A DNA stretch of 57,964 bases. Origin: a virus. The stretch is taken from the IMG/VR virus record IMGVR_UViG_3300045988_085825; one strand, written 5' to 3'. The notes beneath the pieces are model-generated. The model saw only the letters and a list, made by a program, of their open reading frames with translations, made no database searches and was not told where the DNA came from. The number at the start of each line of letters is the position of its first letter. Position 1 is the stretch's first letter. Both the position numbers and the translations under genes were made by a program. Below are positions 3,915 through 57,904 of the stretch, piece by piece.

Positions 3915-3915
3915 T

Positions 3916-6323: not shown

Positions 6324-6337
6324 GAGGAAATATTATT

Positions 6338-7051: not shown

Positions 7052-7068
7052 TTTTAGTCTGATTTTAT

Positions 7069-7105: not shown

Positions 7106-7117
7106 TTATAACGAGCG

Positions 7118-7155: not shown

Positions 7156-7177
7156 ACTAATGGTGGAGGTGAAATAA

Positions 7178-11492: not shown

Positions 11493-11522
11493 CTGGATAT
11501 ATTTTTATTGGAGGAAAAGTTA

Positions 11523-13423: not shown

Positions 13424-13424
13424 A

Positions 13425-15659: not shown

Positions 15660-16069
15660 TCCAGACCTGCATCAATAAGATTAAATTTACAATTCTCATA
15701 CTTTGTAACAATGTGAGAATCTTGGTCTGCAAATAATGGAACACCGGTCCTGTCTCCAGGATACATTGTAACGGTGATCGGTTTTCCTGTCCGGTAGTCC
15801 TCAAAAGTTACCGGCACATAAAATGGTTCTACTGCCTTTAACATTCTTTGCCATGTTTCTGCATCCAGCATTGCCCATTCCAGATTGTTCAGCTTAAAAA
15901 TGTCTCTTCCTACTCGCTGTCCAATAACTGCATTGTTGGCATTTCGTCCAGAATTTACCGTTGTGCTGATAATATATGAAAATCCAACTCTCGGGCACGG
16001 AAAATCCACTCCATTTACATTCAAAAACGATGACATTCCTCCGCCCGATCGCACAGTCCTTATTGCCAT
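15656..16069 (-). CDS. Distal tail protein-like, first gene of the tail-tip operon
   Basis: 137 aa with a GGAGGTG RBS. Assigned by position upstream of the Tal-like gene. Confidence 0.4.
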   Translation of the reverse strand: MAIRTVRSGGGMSSFLNVNGVDFPCPRVGFSYIISTTVNSGRNANNAVIGQRVGRDIFKLNNLEWAMLDAETWQRMLKAVEPFYVPVTFEDYRTGKPITVTMYPGDRTGVPLFADQDSHIVTKYENCKFNLIDAGLE

Positions 16070-16120
16070 GTAGGCACCTCCATTCTTGGCAGAGGTGCCA
16101 TCAGGCAGTCTGCCAGTATC

Positions 16121-16160
16121 TTTTTCTGGTTAGCGGATACCTGCATCTTCGGCACCCGGT
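16121..16160 (-). promoter_or_regulatory. ACCG-hairpin-CGCTAACC element, copy 4 (minus strand, before the tail-tip operon)
   Basis: The reverse complement reads ACCG GGTGCC gaagatgca GGTATCCG CTAACC AGAAAAA. The stem has two G-U pairs. Confidence 0.5.
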
Positions 16161-16166
16161 ATGTTT

Positions 16167-16979
16167 TTACTCTATCAATTTTGCTTTTAAGTTCCGGCGG
16201 ATAGAACCGGACATAAAGTGGGACAGGCTCTTTTCTATGCCCTCCCGGTATTTCGCCTGCATGTACATATCAATTAACGGTATGTACTGGTCCAGCGTCC
16301 ACACATCATCCATGATTCCGTATTCGTCCTCGTCTTGATGCAGGTAATTGTATACGATATTGCTAATAGCCGGTCGTGTGAGTGGCTTATGCGGCTTTCC
16401 TTGCGTTCTGGCATATTCATTTACAAAGTATTCGGTTATGTCTTTCAACTCTTCTCTATAACCGCTAGCAAGAGCTTCCCCTTCTTCCGTCATTGCCTCG
16501 TTAATAGCTTTTGTAACCATAGGAGATAACGTACCTCTTTCAGATGATGGTGAGACCTCTTTTTCCCCAGAAAAAGAGCATACTCTCATACTATTATCTT
16601 CTATATTTCTATCTATTTTACTATCTATATGTCTTTGTTCTATTTTTTGAGATGGAGACTCACTTTTTTTATCATCCAGACTACTAAATTTTGTTAGGCA
16701 GACTCTCAAAAATCGTTTGCGTCCATCAAATTTGCCAATTTTTACGTATCTAAGTTTAATTAACTTGCTGATACTAGCAGATACTTTGGATACACTGCAC
16801 TGGCAAAATTCTGCCAAATATTCATTGCTAGCATAGCATCCTCCATTTTCCTCGACATCTAAGCTGTTGATCTCTGCCAGAATAAATTTATCAATTGCGC
16901 TTAATTTATCATCAAGCCAAACTTCCTTTGGAATAAAAATCCCCTTAAAATCTCTTGGATACTCAAATCCCTTTTCCAT
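16167..16979 (-). CDS. HTH DNA-binding protein (replication-initiator/DnaD-like N-terminus)
   Basis: The N-terminal pattern FIPKEVWLDDKLSAIDKFILAEI..ASNEYLAEFCQCSVSKVSASISKLIKLRYV resembles initiator-type winged HTH domains (recall). AGGAGG RBS. Confidence 0.5.
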   Translation of the reverse strand: MEKGFEYPRDFKGIFIPKEVWLDDKLSAIDKFILAEINSLDVEENGGCYASNEYLAEFCQCSVSKVSASISKLIKLRYVKIGKFDGRKRFLRVCLTKFSSLDDKKSESPSQKIEQRHIDSKIDRNIEDNSMRVCSFSGEKEVSPSSERGTLSPMVTKAINEAMTEEGEALASGYREELKDITEYFVNEYARTQGKPHKPLTRPAISNIVYNYLHQDEDEYGIMDDVWTLDQYIPLIDMYMQAKYREGIEKSLSHFMSGSIRRNLKAKLIE

Positions 16980-17096
16980 ATACTCTACCTCCTACAAATA
17001 GACTCCTACATTTATGAAAAACAACTGGCAGGCGGTGTAGGATTTCCGCTTTTCGTGTTGCAATCACTAGCCAGTTGGTTTTACCAATTTCAGACA

Positions 17097-17285
17097 AACA
17101 AAAAACGCTCACCAGACACAGTATTTCTACCATGTCCAGTGAGCGTGATTCTCAAAAAGTTTGCCGTCCTTGCTCGATTCGCCCTATCCTTTGCGCCCCG
17201 TTCTCCCCTCAACGGCAAGCCGGGCGGAGCTGGCGGATTCGGTTAAATTTTCTTATATTGTAACATTTTTTTTAATTTATATCAA
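17097..17285 (-). promoter_or_regulatory. Promoter, GC-rich structured leader and intrinsic terminator (leader B)
   Basis: On the minus strand: TTGATA-17-TACAAT (17285..17257), a leader of about 110 nt, then the stem CGCTCAC/GTGAGCG (17145..17106) plus a U-run. It shares GAGCAAGGACGG with the terS leader. Confidence 0.55.
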
Positions 17286-17289: not shown

Positions 17290-18054
17290 TTATTGGTCGA
17301 TTACTAATGCAACATAACCAATTACATTATCAATGTCAGATTCGGAGCATCTGAATCTGTTATCCCTGATGCTCACATATTCAAACTTCCCATTTCCGCA
17401 AGGACTTCTACGGGCAATAAAGACATTGTTGCCATAAATGATAATGCTGTCCTCAGCAGGACGTGGATTGCGATCATTGGCAATCAGGAGAATGTCATAT
17501 GGAGAATAATGCGGCATATAGTTGTCAACCGATGTTTTTATGCCCATGAAAATTTGCGGCTTGATATTTTGCGGAATATCAGTGATATCAAGGGATTCAA
17601 AATCGCCGGAAACATGTAACGTTCCGTCTGGATGTTCCTCCAGATTCATCACAGGGACGGTCTTTCTTCCTTGCCTGAAACCGCCTAAAGAAAGATTGTA
17701 TTGCCTGCGGACGAACCAACGGACAAAATACTGGGAATGTCCTGGCATTTGCCGAAACATGGTGATACAATCCATGTCCTCTTCTGAAATTGTGTCAAGA
17801 CCGATCAATTCATCCACTGTAACACCTATAGCCTTTGCTAAGAGTGCAGCAGTGGACAGCTTGCAATCTTTTGAGTTTTGATACAACAGATTTTTAAGCG
17901 TGTCAAATGAAATGCCAGCGGATTCAGCCAGTTCATGAATGGTAATATCTGAATGCTTTAAGCAGATGTCTAAATTATAACGCAAATTTTCTGCAAAGCT
18001 ATCGTTTTCTTTGGTAAAATATTCCGATAAGTTATACAGATTTTCCTTTTTCAT
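17290..18054 (-). CDS. CI-like repressor (XRE HTH plus S24/LexA-like C-terminal domain)
   Basis: HTH segment ITIHELAESAGISFDTLKNLLYQ. The C-terminus aligns by eye to the S24 fold, but the Ser/Lys positions appear to be replaced. Confidence 0.7.
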   Translation of the reverse strand: MKKENLYNLSEYFTKENDSFAENLRYNLDICLKHSDITIHELAESAGISFDTLKNLLYQNSKDCKLSTAALLAKAIGVTVDELIGLDTISEEDMDCITMFRQMPGHSQYFVRWFVRRQYNLSLGGFRQGRKTVPVMNLEEHPDGTLHVSGDFESLDITDIPQNIKPQIFMGIKTSVDNYMPHYSPYDILLIANDRNPRPAEDSIIIYGNNVFIARRSPCGNGKFEYVSIRDNRFRCSESDIDNVIGYVALVIDQ

Positions 18055-18254: not shown

Positions 18255-18284
18255 TTGACAAAATAAGAACATATGTTCTATAAT
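18255..18284 (+). promoter_or_regulatory. Early promoter with embedded GAAC-N4-GTTC (Cheo/LexA-type) palindrome
   Basis: TTGACA 18255..18260, 18-nt spacer, TATAAT 18279..18284. The perfect palindrome AGAACATATGTTCT lies at 18266..18279. Confidence 0.6.
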
Positions 18285-18335
18285 TATATTAAGCTACTTT
18301 ACGGCACATGCGGATTTTTGATTGGAGGTTTTTTA

Positions 18336-18464
18336 GTGAATGAAAAAGAAGAGTACAGGAAACAGATCATCGAAATGATTGAGAATGTAAAAAGAAAAGA
18401 TATTCTATTATACATTTTTAATATTACAAAGGATATTATCAAGGAGGATAAAGAAAATGAGTAA
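18336..18464 (+). CDS. Small hypothetical protein (42 aa)
   Basis: Start moved to GTG 18336, 7 nt after GGAGG, because the tracked ATG 18273 lies inside the promoter spacer. Confidence 0.4.
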   Translation: MNEKEEYRKQIIEMIENVKRKDILLYIFNITKDIIKEDKENE

Positions 18465-18714
18465 AAATTTATCAAATATTGTAATAAAGTCAAACGAAGA
18501 GAAGGGATATACAGAGATTTTTGTTGACGGGCATAAATTAAAAGGGGTTCGTAGTTTTGAGCTTAAAGAAGATGTCTCTGGCGCACCAACATTAACCGTA
18601 GACCTAAATGCCATAAATTTAAGCGTGGACTGCTTGTGTTTTATGCGTCATAAAGGCTACGGTGATATGAAGATAACATTCATTGATGATGTTGGACACG
18701 AAATGGATATATAG
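18457..18714 (+). CDS. Hypothetical protein
   Basis: 85-aa ORF overlapping the previous stop. Confidence 0.5.
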   Translation: MSKNLSNIVIKSNEEKGYTEIFVDGHKLKGVRSFELKEDVSGAPTLTVDLNAINLSVDCLCFMRHKGYGDMKITFIDDVGHEMDI

Positions 18715-18928: not shown

Positions 18929-19264
18929 TTACACCTCGCTAAGCACGTCGATAGTATCAATGACGTGCTTTTTCTTTCTGCCTGATAGTCTCATATACTT
19001 TTCCAATGCGTTCAACAGTTCCTTATCGTTTCTGATGGAAATCCACAGATCAGCCTGTGCTGACAACGGTATTTCTTTCTCTTTTCCGGTTAATAAATAA
19101 TCTGTACTTACATTGAAAAACTCTGCAATATTTCTAATTCTGCTACTTGGAATATCTTTTGCTTTTGCAAGAGAACCATTGCTGTATTCTAATATTTGCT
19201 CAAGTGTAGTAATGCTGATGCCTTTTTCTTTGCATAGTGTTTTTATGCGCTCTAGTACTGTCAT
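18929..19264 (-). CDS. XRE-family HTH repressor
   Basis: HTH segment ISITTLEQILEYSNGSLAKAK...NIAEFFNVSTDYLL. Transcribed divergently from a Cro-like gene. Confidence 0.8.
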   Translation of the reverse strand: MTVLERIKTLCKEKGISITTLEQILEYSNGSLAKAKDIPSSRIRNIAEFFNVSTDYLLTGKEKEIPLSAQADLWISIRNDKELLNALEKYMRLSGRKKKHVIDTIDVLSEV

Positions 19265-19283: not shown

Positions 19284-19453
19284 TAGAAGAAAATCTATAA
19301 AAATGCTTGACAAACTAGAACATAACCTATATACTAGCCTTATCAACTAGAAAATGTTCTACAAAAGACATAGTAAATAGAAAATGTTCTTATCATGTGT
19401 GGTAGCTTAATTATAGAATATATTCTAATAAAATGTCAATAGAACATTATCTA
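19284..19453. promoter_or_regulatory. Operator array (six TAGAA-N4-TTCTA-like sites) with a rightward promoter
   Basis: Sites at 19284, 19316, 19348, 19378, 19414 and 19440. Those at 19348 and 19414 have perfect arms. TTGACA 19307..19312, 17-nt spacer, TATACT 19330..19335. Confidence 0.6.
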
Positions 19454-19477
19454 AATAAAAAGAAAGGAGGATGTTTG

Positions 19478-19666
19478 ATGATTTACAGAAAGATTATTAA
19501 ATACTGCGAAGAGAACAATATCTCGATTGCTGCGCTTGAGAAAAAGTGCAATATCGGTAACGGAACTATTGGAAAGTGGGAAAAAGGAGGAAAACCTTCA
19601 CTTGACACTCTGGAAAAAATCTCAAAGGTAACGGGAATCACGGTATCAGAGCTTGTAAGCAATTGA
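19478..19666 (+). CDS. Cro-like XRE HTH protein
   Basis: Start at ATG 19478, 7 nt after AAAGGAGG. HTH segment ISIAALEKKCNIGNGTIGKWEKG. Confidence 0.75.
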   Translation: MIYRKIIKYCEENNISIAALEKKCNIGNGTIGKWEKGGKPSLDTLEKISKVTGITVSELVSN

Positions 19667-25430: not shown

Positions 25431-26030
25431 ATGAGTAAAGCATTGGATATGGCAAGGAAACTGGTTAAGAAGCTGGAAGAAGAGGAAAAACAGTCGAAAG
25501 TGCAGCTTTCAACTTTGAATCCGGGAGATGTATTCAAAATTGGAGAGCATGATTTTATTGTACTGACGCAGTACAGAGAGGAAACGGCAGTAATTTCCAA
25601 AGGATTCATGGCTGAAAATGTGAAATTTGATGAGGATTCGAGAAACTATAAAGAGTCAAATCTGAAAAAGGTTATCGAAAATCTGATCCAGCCGGTTATT
25701 GAGAAGGAAGTCGGATCAAAAAACCTTATTGAGCATGAGGTTGATCTGACAAGTGTAGATATGCAGGACGAATTAGGAAGAGATAGATGCAAAGTCAGAC
25801 CTATAACATTTGATGAAGCACGACAGTATAACGATTTACTGGTTAATAAAAACCTTAATGATTGGTGGTGGACATGCACACCTTGGAGCACAGAAGACAG
25901 AGGATGGAAATATTCAATTGCCGTTGTTGCTCCGACCGGCATTATCTACGACAACGATTGCGATTTCAGCCGCGGTGTTCGCCCGTTTTGTATCTTAAAA
26001 TCTAATATCTTTGTATCGAAGGGAGAATGA
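25431..26030 (+). CDS. DGR target protein (DUF6273-like C-type-lectin-fold candidate, recall)
   Basis: 199 aa. The C-terminus WWWTCTPWS...VVAPTGIIYDNDCDFSRGVRPFCI carries the VR. Confidence 0.8.
   Translation: MSKALDMARKLVKKLEEEEKQSKVQLSTLNPGDVFKIGEHDFIVLTQYREETAVISKGFMAENVKFDEDSRNYKESNLKKVIENLIQPVIEKEVGSKNLIEHEVDLTSVDMQDELGRDRCKVRPITFDEARQYNDLLVNKNLNDWWWTCTPWSTEDRGWKYSIAVVAPTGIIYDNDCDFSRGVRPFCILKSNIFVSKGE
25918..25994 (+). repeat. DGR variable repeat (VR)
   Basis: 65/77 identity to 26534..26610. All mismatches but one correspond to adenines in the other copy. Confidence 0.85.
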
Positions 26031-26814
26031 AAATGGGATTAACAATGAAAGCATTGCAGGAACAGATTGATGTGTTAAAAAAGAAATGGAAGAGCTGAGA
26101 AGCGGCCAGAAAGTAGAATGCAACAAGAAATTTTCCAAATTTCTTACTATTGGTGAAACATTTGAACTGGCGGGAGTTAATTGGAAGATTATTGATATCA
26201 CAAGTGACGGTCATGTTTGCCTGTCTGATTCTATAGGTGAAATGAAATTCAGCTCTGAAAACAATGACTGGAGAACCAGCAATCTTCGGAAGTATTTGAA
26301 TGAAGAATTTTTGAAAAAGATTGAATCAGAAATCGGAGCAGGTAATCTGATAGGATTTGAAAGAAATCTTCTTTCTTTGGACGGCCAGACGGAGTACGGA
26401 ACCTGTGATGATAAAGTGTCACTTTTGACAGTGGATGAGTACCGGAAATACAGAAGGCTGATTCCAAATACAGGTGATTGGTTCTGGTTGATTTCTCCGT
26501 GGAGTACACCTTGCAATGATTTCAAAAACAGTGTTACCGTTGTTGCTCCGACCGGCAATATCAACAACAACAATTGCAATAACAGCAACGGTGTTCGCCC
26601 ATTCTGTATCAAACAGATAGTTAGAGTAGGCAGTAAGCCGAAATCAGAAAAAGATACAAAAAAGTGTATGACCTTCCCGAATAGGGTAAATACAAAGGAA
26701 TTTTTACAATGGATAAAGATGTTATATGCAGCTATGAAAATCTGTATAAGGCATACCGGAAGGCTAAAACTGGCAAAGGTTTTAATGGAAGCTGTGCAAA
26801 ATTTCAGACTATGA
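26027..26814 (+). CDS. Paralogue of the DGR target carrying the TR; needs a -1 shift at A AAA AAG
   Basis: The start (ATGA-coupled 26027, or ATG 26033 after GGGAG) opens a 21-23 codon frame. The heptamer AAAAAAG at 26077..26083 leads into the long ORF tracked from 26086. Confidence 0.55.
26534..26610 (+). repeat. DGR template repeat (TR)
   Basis: Adenine-rich, reading G N I N N N N C N N S N G in frame. It lies 98 nt upstream of the RT start. Confidence 0.85.
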
Positions 26815-27734
26815 ATCTGGAAGGACTTCACTTATTGAAAGAACAACTGGAAAATCAGACATACCGGTTGAATCCGTACAACGAATTTAAGGTTTACGAA
26901 CCGAAAGAAAGAGTGATTAAATCGTGTTCTTTCAAAGACAAAATAGTCCAGCATTGTTTATGTGATGAAATTCTGCATCCTGCATTAAAGGATCGTTTTA
27001 TCAGTACGAATTATGCCGGGCAGCAGGGGAAAGGTACTCATTTTGGAATGGATTGCTTGAAAGAGCAAATGATTGATTTTTATGAAGAACATAGACTTGA
27101 TGGCTGGATTCTTAAATGTGACATTAAAAAGTTTTTCTACCAGATAGACCATGAGATCCTAAAAAGAATTGTTGACTATCACTTTCCAGATGAGTACACC
27201 AAATGGTTGAATCACCTGTTTATTGACAGTACAGAAGGTTTGGGGCTTCCACTCGGGAATCAAGTAGCTCAGGTATATGCACTTCTGATGCTAGATGGTA
27301 TGGATCACTTCATTACCGAAACACTTGGAATTTCCAGATATGGAAGATACATGGATGATTTTTACCTGATTTATACAGATAAAGAGTATTTGAAGTTTTG
27401 CTTGGAGCAGATTCGAGATTTTCTTGGAAGTCTGGGACTTGAATTGAATGGAAAGACACAGATTGTCCCATTCAAATGCGGAATAGCATTTACAGGTTTT
27501 CATCACTACGTAACATTGGACGGAAAATACATAAGAAAATTGAGCGGCACAAACAAACGAAAGATGCGTAAGAAAATCAGGAAATGGTCAGAACTGATTA
27601 GGTCCGGGAAAATGACGGAAGAAAAATTTTTTGAGAAGTACAACGCTTGGAAAAACCATGCATTACATGGAAATTGCATTAAATTGTGCCACTCGATGGA
27701 TTTATATGTAAAAGAATTATTGGAGGAAAAGTAA
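26709..27734 (+). CDS. DGR reverse transcriptase
   Basis: 341 aa with a YMDD box (GRYMDDFYLI) and the DGR-type motif LPLGNQVAQVYALLML. Confidence 0.9.
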   Translation: MDKDVICSYENLYKAYRKAKTGKGFNGSCAKFQTMNLEGLHLLKEQLENQTYRLNPYNEFKVYEPKERVIKSCSFKDKIVQHCLCDEILHPALKDRFISTNYAGQQGKGTHFGMDCLKEQMIDFYEEHRLDGWILKCDIKKFFYQIDHEILKRIVDYHFPDEYTKWLNHLFIDSTEGLGLPLGNQVAQVYALLMLDGMDHFITETLGISRYGRYMDDFYLIYTDKEYLKFCLEQIRDFLGSLGLELNGKTQIVPFKCGIAFTGFHHYVTLDGKYIRKLSGTNKRKMRKKIRKWSELIRSGKMTEEKFFEKYNAWKNHALHGNCIKLCHSMDLYVKELLEEK

Positions 27735-39775: not shown

Positions 39776-41125
39776 ATGAGAAAACTTAATGTCGCGTATC
39801 TAAGAGTATCTACAGAAGCTCAGACTGAAAAGTACGGATTAGATGTGCAAAAACAAAAAATACTGGATCATTGTGAAAAAAAGGGAGTGGTAATAGACAA
39901 ATGGTATATTGACGGCGGATATAGTGGAAGTAAACTTGACCGACCGAAAATTCAAGAATTATTGGATGATGCAGAAAAAGGATTGATAGGGACTGTTTTT
40001 ATTTATAAGCTGGACAGGATGAGCCGAGATGTAATTGATACTCTTAATTTATTTTATAAGGTATTACCCAAGTATGGGGTTAAGGTCGTATCAATGACAG
40101 AAGATTTGCGGACAGAAAAACCTATGGATCGAGTCATGCTTACAATGAATGCCGCGATGAACCAGTATGAGCGTGAAGTTATTCGAATGAGAATGTCTGC
40201 AGGAATGTTGGAGCGCGTAAAAAAGGGACTCTGGATGGGCGGAGGACGCATTCCATGGGGATATTACTATGACAGAAACGACGGCATACTTCATGTAGAT
40301 GAAGAACAGGCTAAAATGGTGAGGAACGCATACAAACTTTATCTGAAAGGATATTCGTGCGACAAGATAGCCACTATGCTTGGATTCCGCGGCGAGCGAA
40401 TTGTTACGCAGATATTGAAAAGGAAATCAAATATAGGTCTTATAGAGTACAAAGGAAATGTATATCAAGGGAAGCATGAACCTATTGTTGATGAAAAATT
40501 GTTTTGGGATGTTCAAGATGCAATTAACAAGAGGAAATCAAATTCGCACATAAGCAATAATCATTTGCTTACAGGCCTTTGCTATTGCGGATATTGCGGA
40601 TCTAAAATGCGGTATCAGAAATGGGGAAGATCAGGACACAGGCTTGTTTGCTATTCGCATTACAAAAGCGGAAAACCTTATATGCGAAAAGTGGATAGTT
40701 GTATAAGCAAACCAGAAAGAGCAGATTTTTTAGAAAACGAAATTGAGGATGCTTTCAAAAAATTTGCAATTCATGTTGATGAAACCGAGAATGAATGTCT
40801 GGATCAGTCAATAATTCTTGAACGTACTATAAAATCGGAGCATGAGCGTCTAAAAAAAATGTACACTTTGTATATAAGCTGCATGAGCGACGATTTGTTG
40901 GAATTGATAAAGGAAAAAGAAGAAAGTATAAAAAAATTACAAAAACAACTTGAAGAGAATGAACGAGAGAAAGGATGCGATGTTGAAAAAATAGAGGAAA
41001 TCAAGCAGATGGCAGATGTCTGGGATTCCTTGACGGTAAAAGAGAAGAACCGAATATTAAAAGAATGTGTAGAAAAAATAATAATAAAAGGGAGCGACAT
41101 AGAAGTCAGCTTCGTTACTTTTTAA
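39776..41125 (+). CDS. Large serine recombinase (integrase)
   Basis: Resolvase-type N-terminus (VAYLRVSTEAQ...YKLDRMSRD), a recombinase domain, and a zinc-ribbon/coiled-coil C-terminus. Confidence 0.9.
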   Translation: MRKLNVAYLRVSTEAQTEKYGLDVQKQKILDHCEKKGVVIDKWYIDGGYSGSKLDRPKIQELLDDAEKGLIGTVFIYKLDRMSRDVIDTLNLFYKVLPKYGVKVVSMTEDLRTEKPMDRVMLTMNAAMNQYEREVIRMRMSAGMLERVKKGLWMGGGRIPWGYYYDRNDGILHVDEEQAKMVRNAYKLYLKGYSCDKIATMLGFRGERIVTQILKRKSNIGLIEYKGNVYQGKHEPIVDEKLFWDVQDAINKRKSNSHISNNHLLTGLCYCGYCGSKMRYQKWGRSGHRLVCYSHYKSGKPYMRKVDSCISKPERADFLENEIEDAFKKFAIHVDETENECLDQSIILERTIKSEHERLKKMYTLYISCMSDDLLELIKEKEESIKKLQKQLEENEREKGCDVEKIEEIKQMADVWDSLTVKEKNRILKECVEKIIIKGSDIEVSFVTF

Positions 41126-41293: not shown

Positions 41294-41437
41294 ATGTTTT
41301 CAGATGAAATTTTAGAAAAGATTTTTGCCCGGAAAGAATTGCAGAGACTTGATCTACAGACACAGTCAGAAGTCATTCACGCAATAGAGGAAGTTTTGGA
41401 GGAGGTAAAAGAAAATGCCAGTTCCGTATCAGAATAA
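41294..41437 (+). CDS. Small hypothetical protein (47 aa, not in ORF track)
   Basis: ATG 41294 after GAAGGAGGGAG. Confidence 0.4.
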   Translation: MFSDEILEKIFARKELQRLDLQTQSEVIHAIEEVLEEVKENASSVSE

Positions 41438-41936
41438 TATGTATCCTCAGATGCCATATGGCCAGCAGCAATACGGTGTAAATTCATATCTTCCGTATAT
41501 GCAGCCGAGATTTCAGCAGCCGGAAGTTCCGGCGCAGCAGGTTCAGCAACAGACTCCACCGGTGCAACAGATGCCAAGGGGACTTAACGGAATGGTCGTG
41601 CAGGCAATCGAAAACGTGACAGCTGATTGTGTGCCTATGGACGGTTCAGCAGCTTTCTTCCCCAAGCAGGACTTGTCAGAAATCTATGTTAAAAGTTGGT
41701 GTGCTGATGGAACAATACGCACATTGACCTATAAACCGGTTCAACCAAATACACCTAAAGAAGTACAGGCTGGCGAAGATAAAATGGTTTCTGGACTCGC
41801 ACAGAACGTCACAGAGGTATTTGAGAGACACTTCAACGAGCTTTCCGAAAAGATTGACCGGTTGGAACTGTCAATAGCCAGACCGGGAACAAAAGGAAGA
41901 ACTGCCACAGTGAAAAAGGATGGTGAATCTGAATGA
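41415..41936 (+). CDS. Gln/Pro-rich hypothetical protein
   Basis: 173 aa. The N-terminal 55 aa are Q/P/Y/M low complexity. Confidence 0.5.
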   Translation: MPVPYQNNMYPQMPYGQQQYGVNSYLPYMQPRFQQPEVPAQQVQQQTPPVQQMPRGLNGMVVQAIENVTADCVPMDGSAAFFPKQDLSEIYVKSWCADGTIRTLTYKPVQPNTPKEVQAGEDKMVSGLAQNVTEVFERHFNELSEKIDRLELSIARPGTKGRTATVKKDGESE

Positions 41937-42160
41937 ATCCGATGAATTTAATGCAGATGTTTCAAAATCCACAGCAGTTTATGCAAAATATTATGGGTAA
42001 CAACCAAATCATGAGCAATCCAATGGCACAAAATGTCGTAAAGATGATGCAAAAAGGGGATGCACAGGGGATTGAGCAGATGGCAAGAAACCTGTGTAAA
42101 GAAAAAAATCTGAATGCAGATGAAGTAATGCAGCAGATAAAAAGTAAATTTAATCTTTGA
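41933..42160 (+). CDS. Met/Gln/Asn-rich small protein
   Basis: 75 aa, ATGA-coupled. Confidence 0.5.
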   Translation: MNPMNLMQMFQNPQQFMQNIMGNNQIMSNPMAQNVVKMMQKGDAQGIEQMARNLCKEKNLNADEVMQQIKSKFNL

Positions 42161-42233
42161 TAGCATATTAGAGGTTTGTGCACAAAACCTAGGGAATCTC
42201 TTTATGAATATATTTTACGGAGGTAAATCTAAT

Positions 42234-43007
42234 ATGTTTAATGGCAACAATACACCTTTTACGATGCCGGTAATGCCTGCTAACACAGGTGGTTACGGAA
42301 ATGGTGGAGCATGGGGAGACGGCGGATGGCTCTGGATCATCGTCGTATTCGCACTTCTTTTTGGCTGGGGTAACAACGGCTGGGGAGGATTTGGCGGAGG
42401 AAACGGCGGTGGTTATGTAGCAACAGCAGCTACCCAGGCAGACATCCAGCGTGGTTTTGATAATCAGGCGGTTATCAGCAAACTTGACGGAATTTCTAAT
42501 GGATTGTGTGATGGTTTTTATGCCGTGAATAACGGTATGCTTACCGGATTCAATGGAATCAACACAAACATCATGCAGACCGGATTTGGAATTCAGCAGG
42601 CAATCAATGCAGATACCATTGCCAATATGCAGAACACCAATGCATTGCAGGCACAGCTTGCAAATTGCTGCTGCGAAACCCGTGAAGCTATTCAGGGTGT
42701 AAACTACAATATGGCACAGAATACCTGCGCTTTGCAGAACACAATGAACAGCAACACCAGAGACATCATCGACAGTCAGAATGCAGGAACCCGTGCAATC
42801 CTTGACTATCTGTGCCAGGAGAAAATCTCTGCTCTTCAGGCAGAGAATAGTGATCTTCGTCGGGCAGCTTCTCAGGATCGCCAGAGCGCACTGCTCACCA
42901 ATGCAATGTCTGCTCAGACACAGCAGATCATTGATGCGGTACGTCCGACACCGGTTCCATCATATCCGGCATCTAACCTTTATGGTTATGCAGGTTGCGG
43001 ATGCTGA
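42234..43007 (+). CDS. Gly-rich membrane protein with Asn/Gln-rich coiled region and C-terminal CGC
   Basis: GGYGNGGAWGDGGW, the TM segment LWIIVVFALLFGW, GGFGGGNGGG, then an N/Q-rich region. Start at ATG 42234 after GGAGG. Confidence 0.5.
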   Translation: MFNGNNTPFTMPVMPANTGGYGNGGAWGDGGWLWIIVVFALLFGWGNNGWGGFGGGNGGGYVATAATQADIQRGFDNQAVISKLDGISNGLCDGFYAVNNGMLTGFNGINTNIMQTGFGIQQAINADTIANMQNTNALQAQLANCCCETREAIQGVNYNMAQNTCALQNTMNSNTRDIIDSQNAGTRAILDYLCQEKISALQAENSDLRRAASQDRQSALLTNAMSAQTQQIIDAVRPTPVPSYPASNLYGYAGCGC

Positions 43008-43110
43008 CAACAAAATAATTGTAACTTAACCAAACAGGTTATGTCTGCATAGCAGAATTACACAGGGCAGGCTTAACAGTCTGCCCTTATCATTTATGGA
43101 GGTAAATATT

Positions 43111-43533
43111 ATGGCTGAATTTGTAACTGTAGCTGCTCAGGAAGTAGCGCAGAACGGTAATGTGGTTTTTTCAAACACAGCGGTAAAAGCAGGAAACTGC
43201 ATCAAACACCGGGAAGGTTCCGGAATCATCACTTTAAGAGGACTTACTAACCAGTGTCGTGCAAGATATTTTGTGGATTTTTCCGCAAATATCGCAGTAC
43301 CGGCAGGTGGGACAGCAGGTGAAATTTCTCTGGCAATCGCAATCAGTGGAGAACCGGTTCTTTCATCTCAAATGCGTTCCACTCCGGCAGCAGTATCGCA
43401 GTATAACAACGTGTCCGCTGGAATCTATGTAGATGTACCGGCAGGATGTTGCGTGAACATTGCGGTTGAAAATACCAGTACGCAGGCTATTGACGTAGCA
43501 AATGCCAATATCGTTGTAACTAGGGAGGCGTAA
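43111..43533 (+). CDS. Beta-sandwich protein (BclA-C/C1q-like, tentative)
   Basis: 141 aa. The alternating beta pattern GSGIITLRG...YFVDFSANIAVPAGGTAGEISLAIAISG resembles exosporium BclA C-terminal domains (recall only). Confidence 0.4.
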   Translation: MAEFVTVAAQEVAQNGNVVFSNTAVKAGNCIKHREGSGIITLRGLTNQCRARYFVDFSANIAVPAGGTAGEISLAIAISGEPVLSSQMRSTPAAVSQYNNVSAGIYVDVPAGCCVNIAVENTSTQAIDVANANIVVTREA

Positions 43534-43538
43534 AAGCT

Positions 43539-44186
43539 ATGGATGTTAAGAGAATGTATTGCATGAGTGAAAAGCTGGCTGAATGTGCCGAGAAGCAGTT
43601 TGATGCCGGAATCGAAAATATTGATACTTCCGAGATGGGACAGGTCGTAGACATGATGAAAGATCTGGCAGAAGCTATGTACTATCGGGAGCTGACAAAA
43701 GCCATGCAGGAATTTGATGCAGAAGATGTAATGGAAATGCTTGACCGTTATGGAGATGGACGGAAGTTTTACGATCATTACCGGTATGCAGATGGAAGAT
43801 TTGCACCAAAAGGACGTGGAACATACCGCCGTGGCTATGAGGAGCCGCCTTACTACCACATGACACCGGAAATGTACCGGAATATGGAGCAGTACCGGGA
43901 TATGGACAGAGATTCTGGCAGAATGTATTATACAGAGCCGTCGATGAGTTCTGACTCTGGTAGTCACATGGAAAGCCGGTATGATATGGCTAAACGCAAT
44001 TATACCGAGAGCAAAGAACTTCACCGTGGCAATACGGCGGAAGACAAGGAACACAAAATGAAAGAGTTGGAAAAGTACATGCGTGAGATCGGTTCTGACA
44101 TCGCGGAAGTGATTTCTGATGCATCATCAGAGGAAAAAGCTCTTCTCAAGCAAAAACTGCAAGTTATCATGCAGAAAATCCAGTAA
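43539..44186 (+). CDS. Tyr/Arg/Met/Asp-rich hypothetical protein
   Basis: 215-aa low-complexity ORF. Confidence 0.5.
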   Translation: MDVKRMYCMSEKLAECAEKQFDAGIENIDTSEMGQVVDMMKDLAEAMYYRELTKAMQEFDAEDVMEMLDRYGDGRKFYDHYRYADGRFAPKGRGTYRRGYEEPPYYHMTPEMYRNMEQYRDMDRDSGRMYYTEPSMSSDSGSHMESRYDMAKRNYTESKELHRGNTAEDKEHKMKELEKYMREIGSDIAEVISDASSEEKALLKQKLQVIMQKIQ

Positions 44187-44234
44187 AAAGTGCAGGGTGG
44201 TGCGGTTTTGCATCACCCTTTTTGAGGTGCAATT

Positions 44235-44555
44235 ATGTTTGAAATCAATGGAGTAAAATGGAATATAGAATTTGTTCCGGTTACAAGTCCATTTCTGAAA
44301 CGCTCTGACGGCTCACAAAGCGTTGGTGTGACAGATGCCAATACTTCTACGGTTTACCTGTCAAACAGGATTAAAGGGGCATTTCTGCGCCGTGTGACGG
44401 CACACGAACTCTGCCATTGTTTCTGCTTTTCTTTCAACATACATATGCCAATGGAGCAGGAAGAATATCTGGCAGACTGGGTAAGCTTATACGGGACAGA
44501 TTTGATCTACTTACTGGATGATTTGATGGGAAGCCTGATCAGAAAATTTGCATAA
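44235..44555 (+). CDS. Putative HExxH metallopeptidase-like protein
   Basis: 106 aa with the motif TAHELCHCF. Confidence 0.5.
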   Translation: MFEINGVKWNIEFVPVTSPFLKRSDGSQSVGVTDANTSTVYLSNRIKGAFLRRVTAHELCHCFCFSFNIHMPMEQEEYLADWVSLYGTDLIYLLDDLMGSLIRKFA

Positions 44556-45711: not shown

Positions 45712-45984
45712 TTATTCGGTCGCTACCAGTTCTGAGCCCTCGCTTGCCACATCCGGAAGAAACGTCCCCAAGCATTCAACCGGAATAAATAAATTGTATC
45801 CTTCAAAACTCTTGAAGTGTGCCAGGCCTTCGCAGATGGAAATATATACATATTCGCGGAAGTCTGCAAAATTAAAATATAATCCGCCTATGTGGTAATA
45901 TTCGGCAGCTTCTGCGGCTGTCTCTTTCTTGACCTGTTCGAGGCTCATCGTAAGCCGTCCGTTTTCGTCCCTATATTTTTTCAT
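45712..45984 (-). CDS. Hypothetical protein (GC-rich island)
   Basis: Start moved to the internal ATG 45984 (MKKYRDENG). Confidence 0.5.
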   Translation of the reverse strand: MKKYRDENGRLTMSLEQVKKETAAEAAEYYHIGGLYFNFADFREYVYISICEGLAHFKSFEGYNLFIPVECLGTFLPDVASEGSELVATE

Positions 45985-46061
45985 GTTTTCCCTTTCTAGC
46001 CTACCATCATCAGAGCCGGGAGGCTGTCCCACGGCTGACGCCCTCACGGGCGTTTCGGCTG

Positions 46062-46827: not shown

Positions 46828-47219
46828 AAATTAAGCACTAATTACAATTGACAAAATAAACAAAATTAAGCACTAACTATAAAAAGATTTTTGTGCATAA
46901 TTATTAAGCACTAAAAAAGTGTTGACAATTAATAGAAATAGCATCTATAATAAGGAAAACAGAAACAGGAGGATTGAACAAATGCCAGAAATGACAGCAG
47001 AAGAAAAAGCAATAAAGAACCGTGAAGCGGTGAAAAAATGCATGAAAAACAAAGATAGAATCAACGTAATTCTCCCACAAGGAACGATTGACCGAATAAA
47101 CTCATATGGATTGAAAACAAGTTCTTTTGCTAGAGAATTGATTCTATCAGAGCTTGATAAAATGGATAGAATGAAAAAATAAAATTAAGCACTAAAAAGT
47201 GTTGACAATTAAGCACTAA
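46828..47219. repeat. Five copies of ATTAAGCACTAA (candidate operators)
   Basis: Copies at 46828, 46863, 46901, 47182 and 47206. Three overlap or abut promoters: TTGACA 46922 with TATAAT 46946, and TTGACA 47202 with TATTAT 47225. Confidence 0.7.
46982..47182 (+). CDS. Ribbon-helix-helix (CopG/Arc-like) regulator
   Basis: Start at ATG 46982 after GGAGG. Beta-strand RINVILPQGTIDRIN followed by helices (SSFARELILSEL). Confidence 0.6.
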   Translation: MPEMTAEEKAIKNREAVKKCMKNKDRINVILPQGTIDRINSYGLKTSSFARELILSELDKMDRMKK

Positions 47220-47273
47220 AGTGCTATTATAATATTGTCGAAAGGCAATAGGCGAAAGCCGGAAAGGGGAAAT

Positions 47274-48006: not shown

Positions 48007-48201
48007 TTGACAAATTGAGAGATTATGGATATTATTATAACTAACTTAAGCCGAGGCGCGCAGGTTCTCCCAGAGTCCGTAGAGGGATAAAAGAGCCGAA
48101 CAACGCGAGAGGTAGTAAGAGCAAGGACGGACAGAAACACAAGCAAAGTGTAGCACGCTCGTAGATCAGACTTTAACAGGTCTTTTCTACGGGCGTTTTT
48201 T
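48007..48201 (+). promoter_or_regulatory. Promoter, GC-rich structured leader and intrinsic terminator upstream of terS (leader A)
   Basis: TTGACA 48007, 17-nt spacer, TATTAT 48030. The 10-bp stem 48156..48165/48186..48195 is followed by T6. It shares GAGCAAGGACGG (48119..48130) with leader B. Confidence 0.55.
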
Positions 48202-48234
48202 ATTTCCCAGAAATCCCAGAAGGAGGTGCAGAGC

Positions 48235-48888
48235 ATGGAAAAAGTAACAGACTTTCAACCGGATCAAGAAGTTTTTGAGACTAACATAGATATGTATCTG
48301 CGCCTGTACTGCGAAAGGCGAAATATAGAGGACATGAGAAAAGAGAGTCAGAGCATTTGGAATGCAGCACTTATGTTTATACGCCGTGAAGTATTTAGAG
48401 ATCGTGAAGCGTTTAGAAATAAGAATCTTATAACTGACACTAATTGTATTATGAACAGTACATGTAATACATATAACTATGATCTAATAGACAGAGTATG
48501 TGATCATTATATATATTTGTGTATGGAGTATGAGAAAGAAATAAGTGTTCTAGGTTTTAGTAATTTAACTGGAATACCTGATGGAACCATATATGATTGG
48601 GGCTACAATCCAAGGGAACTAAGCCGCAAGGGTTCCGAGATTCACAAAAAGCTGTTGAAATACAACGAGGAAAGTTTGGAAAATAAGCTTGCATCGGGCA
48701 AGGCCAACCCCGTTGGAGTGATTGCAATACTTAACAGGCGGCATGGCTGGGCAAGCCCATATACGGCAGATAGCAACCGCCAGAGGTCGCAGGCATTAAC
48801 GGCGGATCAGCTACCCCAATTGGGACAAAAAGACCTTGTTTGTCTGCCTGGGATGGACAAAAACGACAATAGCACAGAGACAAACTAA
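48235..48888 (+). CDS. terS: Terminase small subunit
   Basis: ATG 48235, 8 nt after AGGAGG. The segment GFSNLTGIPDGTIYDWG...NPVGVIAILNRRHGW is typical of TerS (recall). Confidence 0.65.
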   Translation: MEKVTDFQPDQEVFETNIDMYLRLYCERRNIEDMRKESQSIWNAALMFIRREVFRDREAFRNKNLITDTNCIMNSTCNTYNYDLIDRVCDHYIYLCMEYEKEISVLGFSNLTGIPDGTIYDWGYNPRELSRKGSEIHKKLLKYNEESLENKLASGKANPVGVIAILNRRHGWASPYTADSNRQRSQALTADQLPQLGQKDLVCLPGMDKNDNSTETN

Positions 48889-53858: not shown

Positions 53859-53917
53859 AATTATAGGCAGAGGTCTTACAAGCACCTTTGCTTTTTGAAA
53901 GTGGAGGTGCTTTTCTA

Positions 53918-55666
53918 TTGGCAAGTTCAAGCCTGATTTCCACGATAAACGGATATGAAAATTACATAGAGAGAAAAGGGATAGATGAACAGGTTATTGA
54001 CGCATACATACAAGCTGTAGCTGTAGCATTAAGAACAGAACATGATATTGATTATGGGTTAAAAGTATCAGAAAGGGCAAAACGGCTTATAGCTCAATTT
54101 GTTAAAGAACATACAGGTAAAGGAATTGCAAATTTAGAGGTTTATGCAAGCGGACATGATACGACATACAAAGTGCTTCAACAATTTTATGATGTTTTAA
54201 TGTATGAATCTGCCTATTTGGTCGATAGTTTTTTCTATTACATCGAAATAGATGAAAAAGATCCATGGAAGAGATTTTATTTTCCCAGAAGAGAAGTCTT
54301 GAAACCGGTAGTAGGAGCATATCAGGAAATTTATGACGGAAAACTAGATTTTCTTTCTGTTTCACAGCCAAAACGTACCGGGAAAACAACCGGAGGATTA
54401 AAACTGGCACAGATGATGGGTGGGAGAGATCCGGACGGGAGTATTTTTGGTGTTGGAAAAGGAGAAGGACTAGTAAAGAGGTTTTATGGTGGACTTTTAC
54501 AAGGTTTTGAGACAGAAAGCACATACAAAAGATTTTTAAGCGTTTTTCCTGAAGCAACAAAAATCAGCAAAGATGGTTATAAAAGTGCGGAGAATCTTTC
54601 AATAGACCTTAAAAGCAAAAATATTTTTCCGACATTTACTTGCAGACCTATTGATGGTGCAATCGTAGGATGTACAGAAGCAAATGTTCTTGTCTATATT
54701 GATGACTGCGTAAAGAATCACGAGGAGGCAAGAAATAGAGACAGATTAGAGTTCCTGTGTGAAAAGGTTACAGACGATGTTCTTGGACGAAGGCTAGAGG
54801 GCACACCTATCATTATTCAGGGCACAAAATACAGCCTATATGACCCTATTACAGCATTGCAGAACAAAGCTGATGAACTTGGCTGGAGATGGAAAGAAAT
54901 TGCAATTCCGGCCCTGGACCCAATAACGGACGAAAGCAACTGGGAAATCTATCGTAAAGATAAAAAAGGATTACGGAAGATATTCACAACTGATTATTAT
55001 CGAAAAGAGCGGAAACTAGTATCGGAAGAAACGTGGGCTGCGGAGTTCCAGCAGGAGCCATTTGAAGCAAAAGGACGGATGTTTGCAGAGAATGAGTTGA
55101 ATTATTTTGAAGAACTTCCAGTTGATAGAGAACCAGATGCAATCATGGCGGCATGTGATAGCGCAGACAAAGGGGATGATAGCTGTTCTATGCCGGTTGG
55201 ATACATATATGGAAATGAAGTATATGTTGTGGATGTAGTATTTGACAACGCTGGAACACAGTTCACAAAACCGGAATGTGCAAATATGCTCATTAAGCAT
55301 AATGTTAAAACGGTCACATTTGAAAGCAATAGTGCTGGCGAATATTTTGGGCGAGATGTAATGGACATCGTTAAAGAGCGTGGCGGCAGATGTAGCGCAA
55401 GGTTCAAGTTTAATTGTGCGAACAAGATAACAAGAATGGAAAACGCAAGGGACAATATCATTCGTGATTATTATTTTCGCGATTTTAAAAAAATGGATAG
55501 GCAAAGCCAGTATTACAAGTTTATGAAAGAACTTACAACCATGACGAGAAGCGGAAAAGTTAAGCATGATGACGCGCCTGATTCTATTTCATTGTTTGAA
55601 AACGAAATGAGAACAGGAACGCCGGCAAAAGCAGAAGCAGCGGTAAACCCGTTTAGGAGGATGTAA
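53918..55666 (+). CDS. terL: Terminase large subunit
   Basis: Walker A SQPKRTGKTT, a Walker B-like VLVYIDD, and the C-terminal nuclease motif KHDDAPDS. There is no in-frame ATG near the 5' end. The likely start is TTG 53918, 10 nt after GGAGG; the ORF is open from 53888. Confidence 0.85.
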   Translation: MASSSLISTINGYENYIERKGIDEQVIDAYIQAVAVALRTEHDIDYGLKVSERAKRLIAQFVKEHTGKGIANLEVYASGHDTTYKVLQQFYDVLMYESAYLVDSFFYYIEIDEKDPWKRFYFPRREVLKPVVGAYQEIYDGKLDFLSVSQPKRTGKTTGGLKLAQMMGGRDPDGSIFGVGKGEGLVKRFYGGLLQGFETESTYKRFLSVFPEATKISKDGYKSAENLSIDLKSKNIFPTFTCRPIDGAIVGCTEANVLVYIDDCVKNHEEARNRDRLEFLCEKVTDDVLGRRLEGTPIIIQGTKYSLYDPITALQNKADELGWRWKEIAIPALDPITDESNWEIYRKDKKGLRKIFTTDYYRKERKLVSEETWAAEFQQEPFEAKGRMFAENELNYFEELPVDREPDAIMAACDSADKGDDSCSMPVGYIYGNEVYVVDVVFDNAGTQFTKPECANMLIKHNVKTVTFESNSAGEYFGRDVMDIVKERGGRCSARFKFNCANKITRMENARDNIIRDYYFRDFKKMDRQSQYYKFMKELTTMTRSGKVKHDDAPDSISLFENEMRTGTPAKAEAAVNPFRRM

Positions 55667-56246: not shown

Positions 56247-56444
56247 ATGGAATACAAACCAAAAACGATATATTGTCCACGGTGTGGCCGGAAAGTTGCT
56301 ACATGGGACGGGCGTTCTTCTGTGCCGGTGATCGGCAGGTGTAAGAAGTGCAATAAACGAGTTGTCTATTACGTAGACAATGGGGAGACAGAAATTAAAG
56401 ATATCCCGCAGAGAAAATGTTCTTCCGGGGTTACTTATATGTAG
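56247..56444 (+). CDS. Zinc-ribbon protein (Mu Com-like architecture, tentative)
   Basis: 65 aa, with CPRCGRKV...GRCKKCNKRV. Confidence 0.4.
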   Translation: MEYKPKTIYCPRCGRKVATWDGRSSVPVIGRCKKCNKRVVYYVDNGETEIKDIPQRKCSSGVTYM

Positions 56445-56452
56445 GTGAAAAC

Positions 56453-57904
56453 ATGGATTTTGCAAGAAACACAATGTATTTTCAAGACCTTGTAAAAGGA
56501 AATTATGGACGAAAAATTGCATATACGGATGCTGAACGAATCACATCTGACAATGTGGTGAAGGTAATTGGACAGTGCATTGGTGTTTTTTATGGTAATA
56601 AATCAGCCATAAGATACCTTTGGCGGTACTACAAAGGAGATCAGCCGGTACTTTACCGGAAAAAGATTTCTAATGAGGACATCACAAACAAAATCCTTGA
56701 AAACCATGCGTATGAGATTGTCCAGTTCAAAGTAGGACAGACATATGGCGAGCCAGTTCAATTCATTAGCAGGAAAGATGATGATGCGATCAACAATGCT
56801 GTGGATGAGTTAAATGATTTTATGACGGATGCCAATAAGCAGGAAAAAGACATTAAGTCCGGTGAATGGCAGTCCGCTACGGGCACATCTTTCAAAGCTA
56901 TCCAGTCTAAAAAAGGGGAAATCCCGTTCAGAATCACAGCACCTAGTCCGTTGAATACTTTTGTTATCTATAACAGAAGCACGGAAGAACCGGTTCTTGC
57001 TGTGCAGGAATTGAAGGATGAGGACGGAAGATACTACAAACTGGCTTTTTCCGAAACGATGTCATTTAAGATTGTTGGCAGCACTGTGGTTGAAAGAAAA
57101 CTGCATACCTATGGCGGAATCCCGATTGTAGAGTATCCAAACAATCACGAACGTATTTCGGACATTGAACTTGTCATTTCTATGTTGGATGCGATCAACA
57201 ATATGCAATCAAACCGCATGGACGGGATTGAACAGTTCGTTCAGTCATGGATTAAATTTGTAAACTGTGATGTAGACGAAGAACAGTTTGCAAAAATGAA
57301 AATGAACCATGCTCTCGTCGTCAAGTCCATCAACAAAGATAACAAGTCAGATGTCGACATTATGACACAGGAACTTAACCAGACCCAATGTCAGGTAGCG
57401 AAAGATGACCTTTGGGACAATGCATTATCCATTCTGGCAATTCCTACTAAGCAGAGTAATACAGGCGGAGACACGCAGGGAGCCGTCGAATTACGTAACG
57501 GCTGGGATTTCTCGAAAACTCGTGCAAAATTGAAAGACCCAATTGTAAAATCATCTGAAAAACGTCTTGCCACAGTTGTTCTTAATACTCTTCGGGTATC
57601 CGGAAACGATTTAAAATTGTCTATCCGGGATTTTGAAGTCCAGATCAACCACAGTCCGCAGGATAACATGTACACCAAGTCCCAGACGCTATTACAGCTC
57701 TTACAGTGCGGTATTCACCCGATTGTGGCTATTAAGACCGTTGGCCTGTGGGGAGATGCAGAAAAGACATTCATGTTGTCAAAACCGTACCTGGATAATC
57801 TGTGGAAAACCATAGATGATGTGGAAGAGCAGGAGCGCAAAGCACAAGAGATTGTAGAAAAATTAAATAATCAAAACCCAACAAATAAGGCAGTCAACGA
57901 GTAA
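56453..57904 (+). CDS. Portal protein (SPP1 gp6-like)
   Basis: Start at ATG 56453. 483 aa, located between terL and the scaffold gene. Confidence 0.85.
   Translation: MDFARNTMYFQDLVKGNYGRKIAYTDAERITSDNVVKVIGQCIGVFYGNKSAIRYLWRYYKGDQPVLYRKKISNEDITNKILENHAYEIVQFKVGQTYGEPVQFISRKDDDAINNAVDELNDFMTDANKQEKDIKSGEWQSATGTSFKAIQSKKGEIPFRITAPSPLNTFVIYNRSTEEPVLAVQELKDEDGRYYKLAFSETMSFKIVGSTVVERKLHTYGGIPIVEYPNNHERISDIELVISMLDAINNMQSNRMDGIEQFVQSWIKFVNCDVDEEQFAKMKMNHALVVKSINKDNKSDVDIMTQELNQTQCQVAKDDLWDNALSILAIPTKQSNTGGDTQGAVELRNGWDFSKTRAKLKDPIVKSSEKRLATVVLNTLRVSGNDLKLSIRDFEVQINHSPQDNMYTKSQTLLQLLQCGIHPIVAIKTVGLWGDAEKTFMLSKPYLDNLWKTIDDVEEQERKAQEIVEKLNNQNPTNKAVNE

Follow-up and report, generated by a model that had tools for sequence, protein, structure and literature searches.

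Phages lambda and HK022 provide the closest described systems with which to compare two homologous leaders, here called A and B, that precede the two late transcription units on opposite strands of the virus record IMGVR_UViG_3300045988_085825 (57,964 nucleotides (nt), analysed whole and referred to below as the window). The lambda nut sites each consist of a short boxA (CGCUCUUA-like) and a 15-nt boxB hairpin that is bound by the arginine-rich N protein. The put RNAs of HK022 are two adjacent stem-loops with no pseudoknot. They serve early operons with repressor-controlled promoters, have no regulatory input, and are thought to act on RNA polymerase (RNAP) itself. Lambda Q, a lytic-cycle factor that brings about processive read-through, recognises promoter DNA and a sigma-dependent pause, and the structure of the leader RNA is irrelevant to it. 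Apart from the paradigms of sigma-like and RinA/ArpU activators, little is understood, to our knowledge, about late-gene timing in the temperate phages that infect Bacillota-type hosts of the gut. In Gram-positive bacteria, the RNA elements conAn2 (pLS20), canT (Tn916) and EAR (B. subtilis eps) allow RNAP to run through the terminators of long operons, and conAn additionally employs a protein as processivity factor (PMC8191782, PMC11658703).

In apparent function and layout, the closest counterparts of the window leaders are nutL/nutR of lambda and its late leader pR'-tR'. Considered as an RNA, the element seems to belong in kind with put, EAR, conAn2 and canT, but it is a member of none of these families. 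The likeness to nut lies in two homologous RNA sites on opposite strands, each situated past a promoter and before terminators, and in what is proposed below for the leaders, namely that a phage factor, acting on the nascent RNA, would let RNAP read processively and in concert through two gene sets of divergent orientation. Unlike nut, the leaders adopt a 90-nt pseudoknotted fold, head late rather than early units, and occur in a phage whose host, judging from distant relatives of terL, is probably a member of the Bacillota and not E. coli. They have no boxA/boxB arrangement, CGCUC being present solely as the base of the terminator, and scans with hidden Markov models gave no N-like protein.

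With putL and putR the leaders have in common a structured, putatively cis-acting nascent RNA beside a promoter, present as two homologous opposite-strand copies in a temperate phage. However, they form one irregular hairpin with a pseudoknot, their promoters are free of operators, and an invariant terminator adjoins the RNA. The resemblance to lambda pR'-qut-tR' (6S RNA) is one of anatomy only: a constitutive promoter and a short terminated leader (~150-190 nt) come before the late operon. In the window, by contrast, the fold of the leader RNA is under strong selection, there are two leaders instead of one, and no Q-family protein was found among ~60 window proteins with PHROG, Pfam and NCBIfam models. 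The elements conAn2, canT and EAR are 120-450 nt long, structurally ill-defined and located in conjugative elements or host operons, whereas the leader RNA is small, defined by covariation and specific to phages. No similarity to them was detected, and scans against Rfam, which should include EAR, returned no match. Like terminator-coupled riboswitches, the leaders place a conserved, pseudoknotted, aptamer-like domain with covariation before an intrinsic terminator in a 5' leader. They differ from riboswitches that act on transcription in having no conserved pair of mutually exclusive terminator/antiterminator helices, a variable linker and a phage late-gene context only. Clostridium phage Maintenon, a cultured distant relative, carries a sigma factor gene upstream of terS and lacks the leader RNA according to the covariance model described below, which points to the RNA module as another means of controlling late genes.

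The leader RNA family

Both leaders belong to one RNA family, as had been proposed in a first-pass annotation of the window. More than 100 distinct copies were found in human-gut phage contigs, usually two per genome, with strong covariation, a common fold in 21 variants and strict synteny. Promoter, RNA and terminator come in this order, and in terS-type leaders the first gene lies 25-36 nt beyond. Human-gut viromes or metagenomes are the source of all real copies. Homologues were collected by an exact pattern scan of IMG/VR, which yielded close relatives with both leader types; by retrieval of loci through the terS-like protein encoded after leader A; and by scans anchored on the tail plus terminator or on the aptamer alone, together with a metagenome scan. 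Every locus retrieved through the terS-like protein that included upstream sequence contained a leader, and far more divergent versions were among them. A covariance model built from the relatives, R1, scores real copies at 47-92 bits and chance matches at no more than 24 bits. Applied to the whole window, it finds only leader A (78.6 bits, E=2.8e-21) and leader B (85.8 bits, E=1.9e-23); the next match, at 20 bits, is a coding-sequence coincidence. The genes that follow the leaders fall into two classes. One is terS-like; the other is antirepressor-like (Rha, ORF6N or Bro-N type) or of HTH_36 type and leads into tail-tip genes. Leaders of the two types, terS and tail-tip, occur together on at least 11 contigs.

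Leader A, on the plus strand, starts with a promoter at 48007-48035 that agrees with the consensus at 11 of 12 positions (-35 TTGACA at 48007-48012, a 17-nt spacer and -10 TATTAT at 48030-48035), and both hexamers are conserved among relatives. Its structured RNA spans 48042-48134, and the GC content of 48050-48149 is 0.55, compared with 0.21-0.24 immediately upstream. A predicted intrinsic terminator follows at 48155-48201, consisting of a hairpin (48155-48196) with the conserved base ACGCUC.../...GGGCGU and then T6 (48196-48201). The lower stem of 11 base pairs (bp) and the upper stem of 6 bp are present in the minimum free energy and centroid structures alike, and relatives carry compensatory variants of the stem (CUCGUAG/CUACGGG versus CUCACAG/CUGUGGG). 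The next features are a ribosome binding site (GGAGG, 48222-48226) and the terS-like first gene, which extends from the ATG at 48235 to 48888. The product of this gene gives a weak GP3_package match (21 bits, under the Pfam cut-off), and its family is found after the leader in nine of 11 divergent phage groups. The start codon behind terS-type leaders is located 22-36 nt past the U-run, so there is no space for a further promoter between the terminator and the first gene.

Leader B, on the minus strand, repeats this arrangement of near-consensus sigma-70 promoter, GC-rich RNA of ~90 nt, strong hairpin with U-run and first gene. Its promoter (17257-17285; -35 TTGATA at 17285-17280, a 17-nt spacer with TG, -10 TACAAT at 17262-17257) begins 5 nt beyond the stop codon of the HTH_26 regulator gene 17290-18054. 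The structured RNA lies at 17160-17251, and the predicted terminator at 17099-17146 is formed by a 19-bp hairpin (17146-17105) and a T-run (17104-17099). For both leaders, the first-pass annotation had correctly located promoter, GC-rich RNA and terminator. It had also put leader B upstream of gene 16979-16167 and a tail-tip operon. The position is right, but the first gene is of HTH_36 type and not a tail gene, and the tail-tip assignment depends on a structure model of medium confidence. Overlooked altogether was an int-alpA RNA motif (RF02996) at 17009-17077 (-), which scores 51.7 bits against a gathering threshold of 35.8. It sits between the leader B terminator and the HTH_36 gene, where its closing stem and U5 make a second terminator-like structure.

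The structured RNA begins within ~10-20 nt of the predicted transcription start. It folds into a long irregular hairpin, P1a-P1b-P2-P3, with a pseudoknot between loop and tail. From 5' to 3', P1a (usually CC/GG) is followed by a small GA/A internal loop, P1b of 4-7 bp and a junction that is usually CAG; then come P2 of 5-6 bp, a 4-5-nt bulge on the 3' side, P3 (CCC/GGG and variants) and a 12-13-nt loop. Within this loop, GCCGU pairs with ACGGC in the nearly invariant 3' tail GAGCAAGGACGGCAAA. Constrained folding and covariation place the helices of leader A at 48050-48052/48111-48113 (P1a), 48057-48060/48104-48107 (P1b), 48063-48068/48092-48097 (P2) and 48069-48071/48084-48086 (P3), and covariation places its pseudoknot at 48075-48080 with 48127-48132. 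The corresponding elements of leader B are at 17242-17241/17184-17183, 17238-17235/17189-17186, 17230-17225/17200-17195 and 17224-17222/17208-17206, with the pseudoknot formed by 17218-17212 and 17167-17161. Features that the first-pass annotation had described as common to the two leaders all find a place in this architecture. Within the whole window, the invariant 12-mer of the tail, GAGCAAGGACGG, is present at 48119-48130 (+) and 17164-17175 (-) and nowhere else. P3 has the GAGGG box as its 3' strand, CACGCTC forms the conserved 5' side of the terminator base, and the long-range helix (GTCCGT/ACGGAC in A, TTGCCGT/ACGGCAA in B) is real and corresponds to the pseudoknot.

Covariation gives this model strong support. 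When 20 variants are aligned with MAFFT and the raw alignment is used, paired cells amount to 81%, compared with 31-48% when partners are slid, and 17 of the 25 pairs have changes on both sides. When 55 distinct sequences are aligned to the model, 81% of the cells are again paired (35-45% when slid) and double changes appear in 19 of the 25 pairs. The covariation score for this larger set is 0.35 as opposed to 0.05-0.10, a value that none of 500 shuffles reached. Single-sequence folding, in which the pseudoknot strands alone were kept single-stranded, recovered P1a-P1b-P2-P3 in all 21 divergent variants, and each of these can form a pseudoknot of 5 bp or more. The helix sequences themselves are very different, as in P1b (CGCG/CGCG, AUCC/GGAU, GUUCCG/CGGGAC, GUUUCG/CGGAAC, AUCAC/GUGAU and GUUGC/GCAAU). 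The pseudoknot has an invariant core and a covarying flank, which is U:A in leader A of the window, U:G in one lineage and otherwise G:C. G:U pairs are frequent on the sense strand, which argues for a structure of RNA rather than DNA. About half of the RNA nucleotides are invariant, and these lie in loops and junctions and include a 16-nt single-stranded tail. Some lineages carry an extra hairpin, either at the P1b/P2 junction (L370 type) or inside P2 (L452).

The first-pass annotation could match the RNA to no riboswitch class, and wider searches agree. Rfam 15 holds no relevant match for the whole window at the gathering threshold, for both leaders at E<=10 or for nine homologous leaders at E<=5, a result that speaks for novelty and not against the family. 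A blastn search of GenBank phages gave no match to leader B or to leader A together with terS, nor did R1 match Maintenon or MT835537. Run without filters over the whole HK022 genome, R1 scored no higher than 8.3 bits (E=3.3). A GC-rich pattern scan of GTDB genomes returned coding coincidences from Streptomyces and other GC-rich genomes (R1 no more than 22.6 bits) and found no host. These GTDB matches, like those from JGI environmental data, were rejected as chance matches, and a loose DNA pattern applied to IMG/VR was discarded because its results were nearly all of this kind. Literature searches with the 12-mer string and keywords returned only unrelated or analogous systems. The structured RNA class is thus real and well supported, and neither Rfam 15 nor the searchable literature describes it.

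Promoters, terminators and the control of read-through

Both leader promoters are apparently constitutive, to judge from their sequences. The CI/Cro operator motif TAGAA-N6-TTCTA, which is present at the lysogeny switch and at 18264-18408, is absent from both, and pairwise comparison of the two promoters found no shared operator, only the hexamers being common. Because these promoters are near-consensus and operator-free and share just their hexamers, because the RNA with its terminator is the sole element common to the two units, and because the endolysin gene lies within the late operon, coordinated control would be expected to act after initiation, with termination as the default state.

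A strong hairpin and U-run follow the RNA in all 102 intact distinct copies, with a median folding free energy of about -26 kcal/mol. The sole copies that lack a terminator hairpin of their own are recombinants fused to DUF4352 genes, which are described in the last section. The linker between tail and terminator measures 13-25 nt and varies in both length and sequence. In contrast to the linker, the base of the terminator is invariant: (C)ACGCUC... pairs with ...G(G/A)GCG, also in the sets gathered without the use of that sequence. Its sole invariant complement is GAGC in the tail. Folds of truncated transcripts contain this 4-bp GAGC:GCUC pairing in 10 of 16 variants, and no conserved antiterminator helix was found beyond it in any of these folds. 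The pairing is too weak for a conventional antiterminator.

These features suggest how the leaders may work. A strong, seemingly unregulated promoter of sigma-70 type would fire, and the first ~90 nt of the transcript would fold into the conserved pseudoknotted RNA. By default, RNAP would halt at the intrinsic terminator 13-25 nt further on, such that the late genes, including that for endolysin, would be silent in the lysogen. In the lytic cycle, a factor supplied in trans, most likely a protein encoded by the phage, would engage the folded leader on the nascent transcript. The elongation complex would then turn terminator-resistant and pass both the leader terminator and the additional hairpin/U-run sites inside the operons. 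Since the same RNA heads both opposite-strand units, one factor would co-activate the packaging, head, tail and lysis genes along with the tail-tip genes.

The leaders probably decide whether RNAP reads through into the two late units, and we are quite confident that control of read-through is exerted in cis. That each leader is a factor-dependent, processive antitermination element is a narrower statement, for and against which we see equal weight. The read-through control put forward in the first-pass annotation agrees with the placement of the leaders; the regulatory role itself, with default termination, regulated read-through, processivity and a need for a trans factor, we infer from anatomy.

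Several observations weigh against the antitermination model. The activities of the promoters and terminators are predictions. The scans of the ~60 window proteins produced no antiterminator candidate, with no match to Q, N, NusG/LoaP, sigma, RinA/ArpU or RNA-binding families. Roughly half of the RNA is invariant although the phage proteins have diverged to 30-60% identity, and nucleotide conservation of this kind is easier to reconcile with a conserved host target, or with a small ligand, than with a protein specific to the phage. The invariant terminator base is not explained by a model in which the RNA does nothing but modify RNAP, and the internal hairpins may be ordinary attenuators that set stoichiometry. 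Processivity is nevertheless plausible: the operons contain terminator-like hairpins at 53880-53912, 2217-2242, 5452-5473 and 7069-7098 (+), in addition to the int-alpA stem and U5 on the minus strand. These are candidate terminators, and consensus scans count them only modestly above the shuffled expectation.

Among the alternatives, a riboswitch in which binding of a small molecule or ion by the pseudoknotted aptamer alters the adjacent terminator, tying the late genes to the metabolic or second-messenger state of the host, appears doubtful. The compact fold with its invariant loops, junctions and single-stranded tail speaks for such a model, as do the terminator immediately behind the RNA in every intact copy, conservation independent of protein divergence, and the complementarity of tail GAGC to terminator-base GCUC. 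Yet four base pairs cannot compete with a terminator of 11-19 bp, no mutually exclusive helix is conserved, the linker varies, Rfam has no riboswitch match, and every real copy is in a phage late-gene context with none before a metabolic or transport gene. A riboswitch would also act on its own terminator only, while further terminator-like sites lie downstream. The lack of a conserved alternative pairing disfavours a classical riboswitch, and together with the modular construction of RNA and terminator around a variable linker and the downstream hairpins it makes processive antitermination the better fit. Processivity could also come from the RNA by itself, as with put, EAR or canT, if the nascent leader bound host RNAP and made it terminator-resistant with no phage protein, timing being set elsewhere. 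RNA-only precedents in mobile elements (PMC11658703, PMC8191782), the orientation-specific position at the extreme 5' end right behind the promoter, two opposite-strand copies as in putL/putR, nucleotide conservation of the strength expected for a host RNAP target, and predicted internal terminators in the downstream operons all speak for this idea. It is nevertheless unlikely: an always-on antiterminator behind consensus, operator-free promoters would express endolysin and structural genes in lysogens, the adjacent and strongly conserved terminator would be pointless, and the HK022 comparison with R1 gives no sign of put homology. The tight control that an operon containing endolysin needs, and promoters that look constitutive, argue for a trans input and not for an always-active RNA of put type. 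There is a broader and somewhat better prospect, still tentative, that the leader works autonomously as a sensor or effector RNA, needing no protein of the phage as a partner, either a new riboswitch for a host metabolite or second messenger or an RNAP-binding antiterminator gated by a host factor, with the invariant GAGCAAGGACGGCAAA tail and the terminator base taking part in the switch.

Two further explanations would remove the leaders from the control of late genes. Each leader could be the gene of a trans-acting small RNA, an abundant product of ~150 nt that sequesters or guides a host or phage factor and whose place before late genes is incidental. The predicted strong promoter and terminator do make a complete transcription unit for a highly structured, conserved RNA, and lambda pR'-tR' yields an analogous short RNA. 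This is improbable given that every intact copy is on the same strand immediately before the first gene of a late unit, that these genes have no other promoter, and that genomes retain a pair of diverged copies, each linked to an operon. Least probable is a role as a DNA element (pac/cos, a terS-binding site or a recombination hotspot) or as a new self-cleaving ribozyme. Leader A is just upstream of terS, a frequent location of pac; the aptamer is a recombination junction with a DUF4352 gene fragment in four contigs; and the same phage has a hammerhead ribozyme. However, the second copy is on the opposite strand and remote from the packaging genes, the compensatory changes with many G:U pairs make sense only in sense-strand RNA, no known ribozyme family matches, and homologous exchange among the dispersed copies best accounts for the recombinants.

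Under the antitermination model, this RNA family would replace a promoter-level activator with a compact RNA and terminator, duplicated to synchronise two opposite-strand operons. If the RNA instead responds to a ligand or host factor, it would be a direct RNA link from host state to phage lysis, and if it is an autonomous sensor, the commitment of gut temperate phages to virions and lysis would depend directly on host physiology. The 90-nt RNA provides a defined object with which to find a new antiterminator protein, ligand or mode of RNAP binding. The family can serve as a sequence marker for the starts of late operons in uncultured gut phages, and the RNA with its terminator is a candidate portable read-through switch.

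Neighbouring genes and other features

A gene upstream of leader A encodes an Arc/RHH-like protein (46982-47182). It is flanked by five AATTAAGCACTAA repeats (46830, 46865, 46903, 47184 and 47208), and there are perfect or near-perfect sigma-70 promoters beside it at 46922-46951 and 47202-47230. Clustering of upstream open reading frames (ORFs) shows that most relatives have a member of its family at the syntenic position before their terS-type leaders. As a regulator of the leaders it was rejected, since the operator repeats differ from phage to phage and never match the leader, and it is regarded as a separate module. ORFs at 41.3-44.6 kb, upstream of leader A, are conserved across divergent leader-bearing phages, but they are low-complexity and coat-like and have no family matches. 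At 41415-44555 (+), downstream of the integrase, they form a cluster of Q/N/G-rich coat-like proteins that is conserved in several of these phage groups and includes a small HExxH protein (44235-44555). A type II hammerhead ribozyme at 45995-46060 (-), scoring 46.9 bits against a gathering threshold of 37, is also located upstream of leader A, in a minus-strand cassette of small genes where it overlaps the start of ORF 45712-46047. In two relatives, the terS-type leader is preceded at a distance of a few hundred nt by tandem repeats of 11-12 nt, at L145:1993-2032 (GGCAACCATCT x3) and L227:4493-4699 (GAACCACCAGAC x7), and these may be packaging or terS-binding sites.

The window is an essentially complete siphophage genome. 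The phage is considered temperate because it has a large serine recombinase gene (39776-41125) and a CI/Cro-like switch, the latter composed of a CI-like gene at 18929-19264 (-) and a Cro-like gene at 19433-19666 (+) with TAGAA-N6-TTCTA operators in between. Two more palindromes resembling these operators, at 18264-18281 and 18391-18408, lie in a second region of divergent promoters, which separates the HTH_26 gene (254 aa) from ORF 18457-18714. After the terS-like gene, the late operon continues with MazG, tRNA-Gln, tRNA-Ile, terL (53888-55666) and portal (56417-57904) genes. It then crosses the window ends to 107-11431, where the major head, neck, major tail, endolysin and tape-measure genes are found. 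The endolysin gene (6338-7051, +) lies between the tail genes and the tape-measure gene, and the strong hairpin with T-run at 7069-7098 (+) separates it from the latter.

No distal-tail genes were found on the plus strand beyond the tape-measure gene. Unit B (12408-16979, -) consists of the HTH_36 gene 16167-16979 and genes 15656-16069, 13425-15659, 13016-13423 and 12408-13016 (CBM_5_12). The product of 13425-15659, a tail-hub-like protein of 744 aa with CBM32-like modules, has an AlphaFold (AF2) model of medium confidence (predicted local distance difference test score, pLDDT, 64). Foldseek matches of this model in the PDB are phage tail-associated lysin (Tal), Mu-type baseplate hub proteins and CBM32 modules. 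It is therefore reasonable to view the downstream genes of unit B as putative tail-tip genes. This module (12408-16069, -) is convergent with the tape-measure gene (7178-11431, +), and a DUF4352 moron (11508-12149) is situated between them. In one relative (L005), where a Rha gene has been inserted behind the leader, the int-alpA RNA stays with the HTH_36-like gene.

Homologues of the DUF4352 gene are the partners in the recombinant leaders, of which there are three distinct sequences in four loci (L403, L451, L397 and L413:12311-12402 (-)). In these, the promoter and aptamer are joined directly past GGACGGCAAA to the 3' end of a DUF4352 gene and its terminator. Such sequences suggest that dispersed leader copies act as recombination junctions. 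Elsewhere in the window, a probable diversity-generating retroelement occupies 25431-27734 (+), with RVT_1 (26709-27734) after two DUF6273 proteins (25431-26030 and 26086-26814). Related 12-mers, GAGCAACAACGG, at 25921 and 26537 could be its variable and template repeats (VR/TR).

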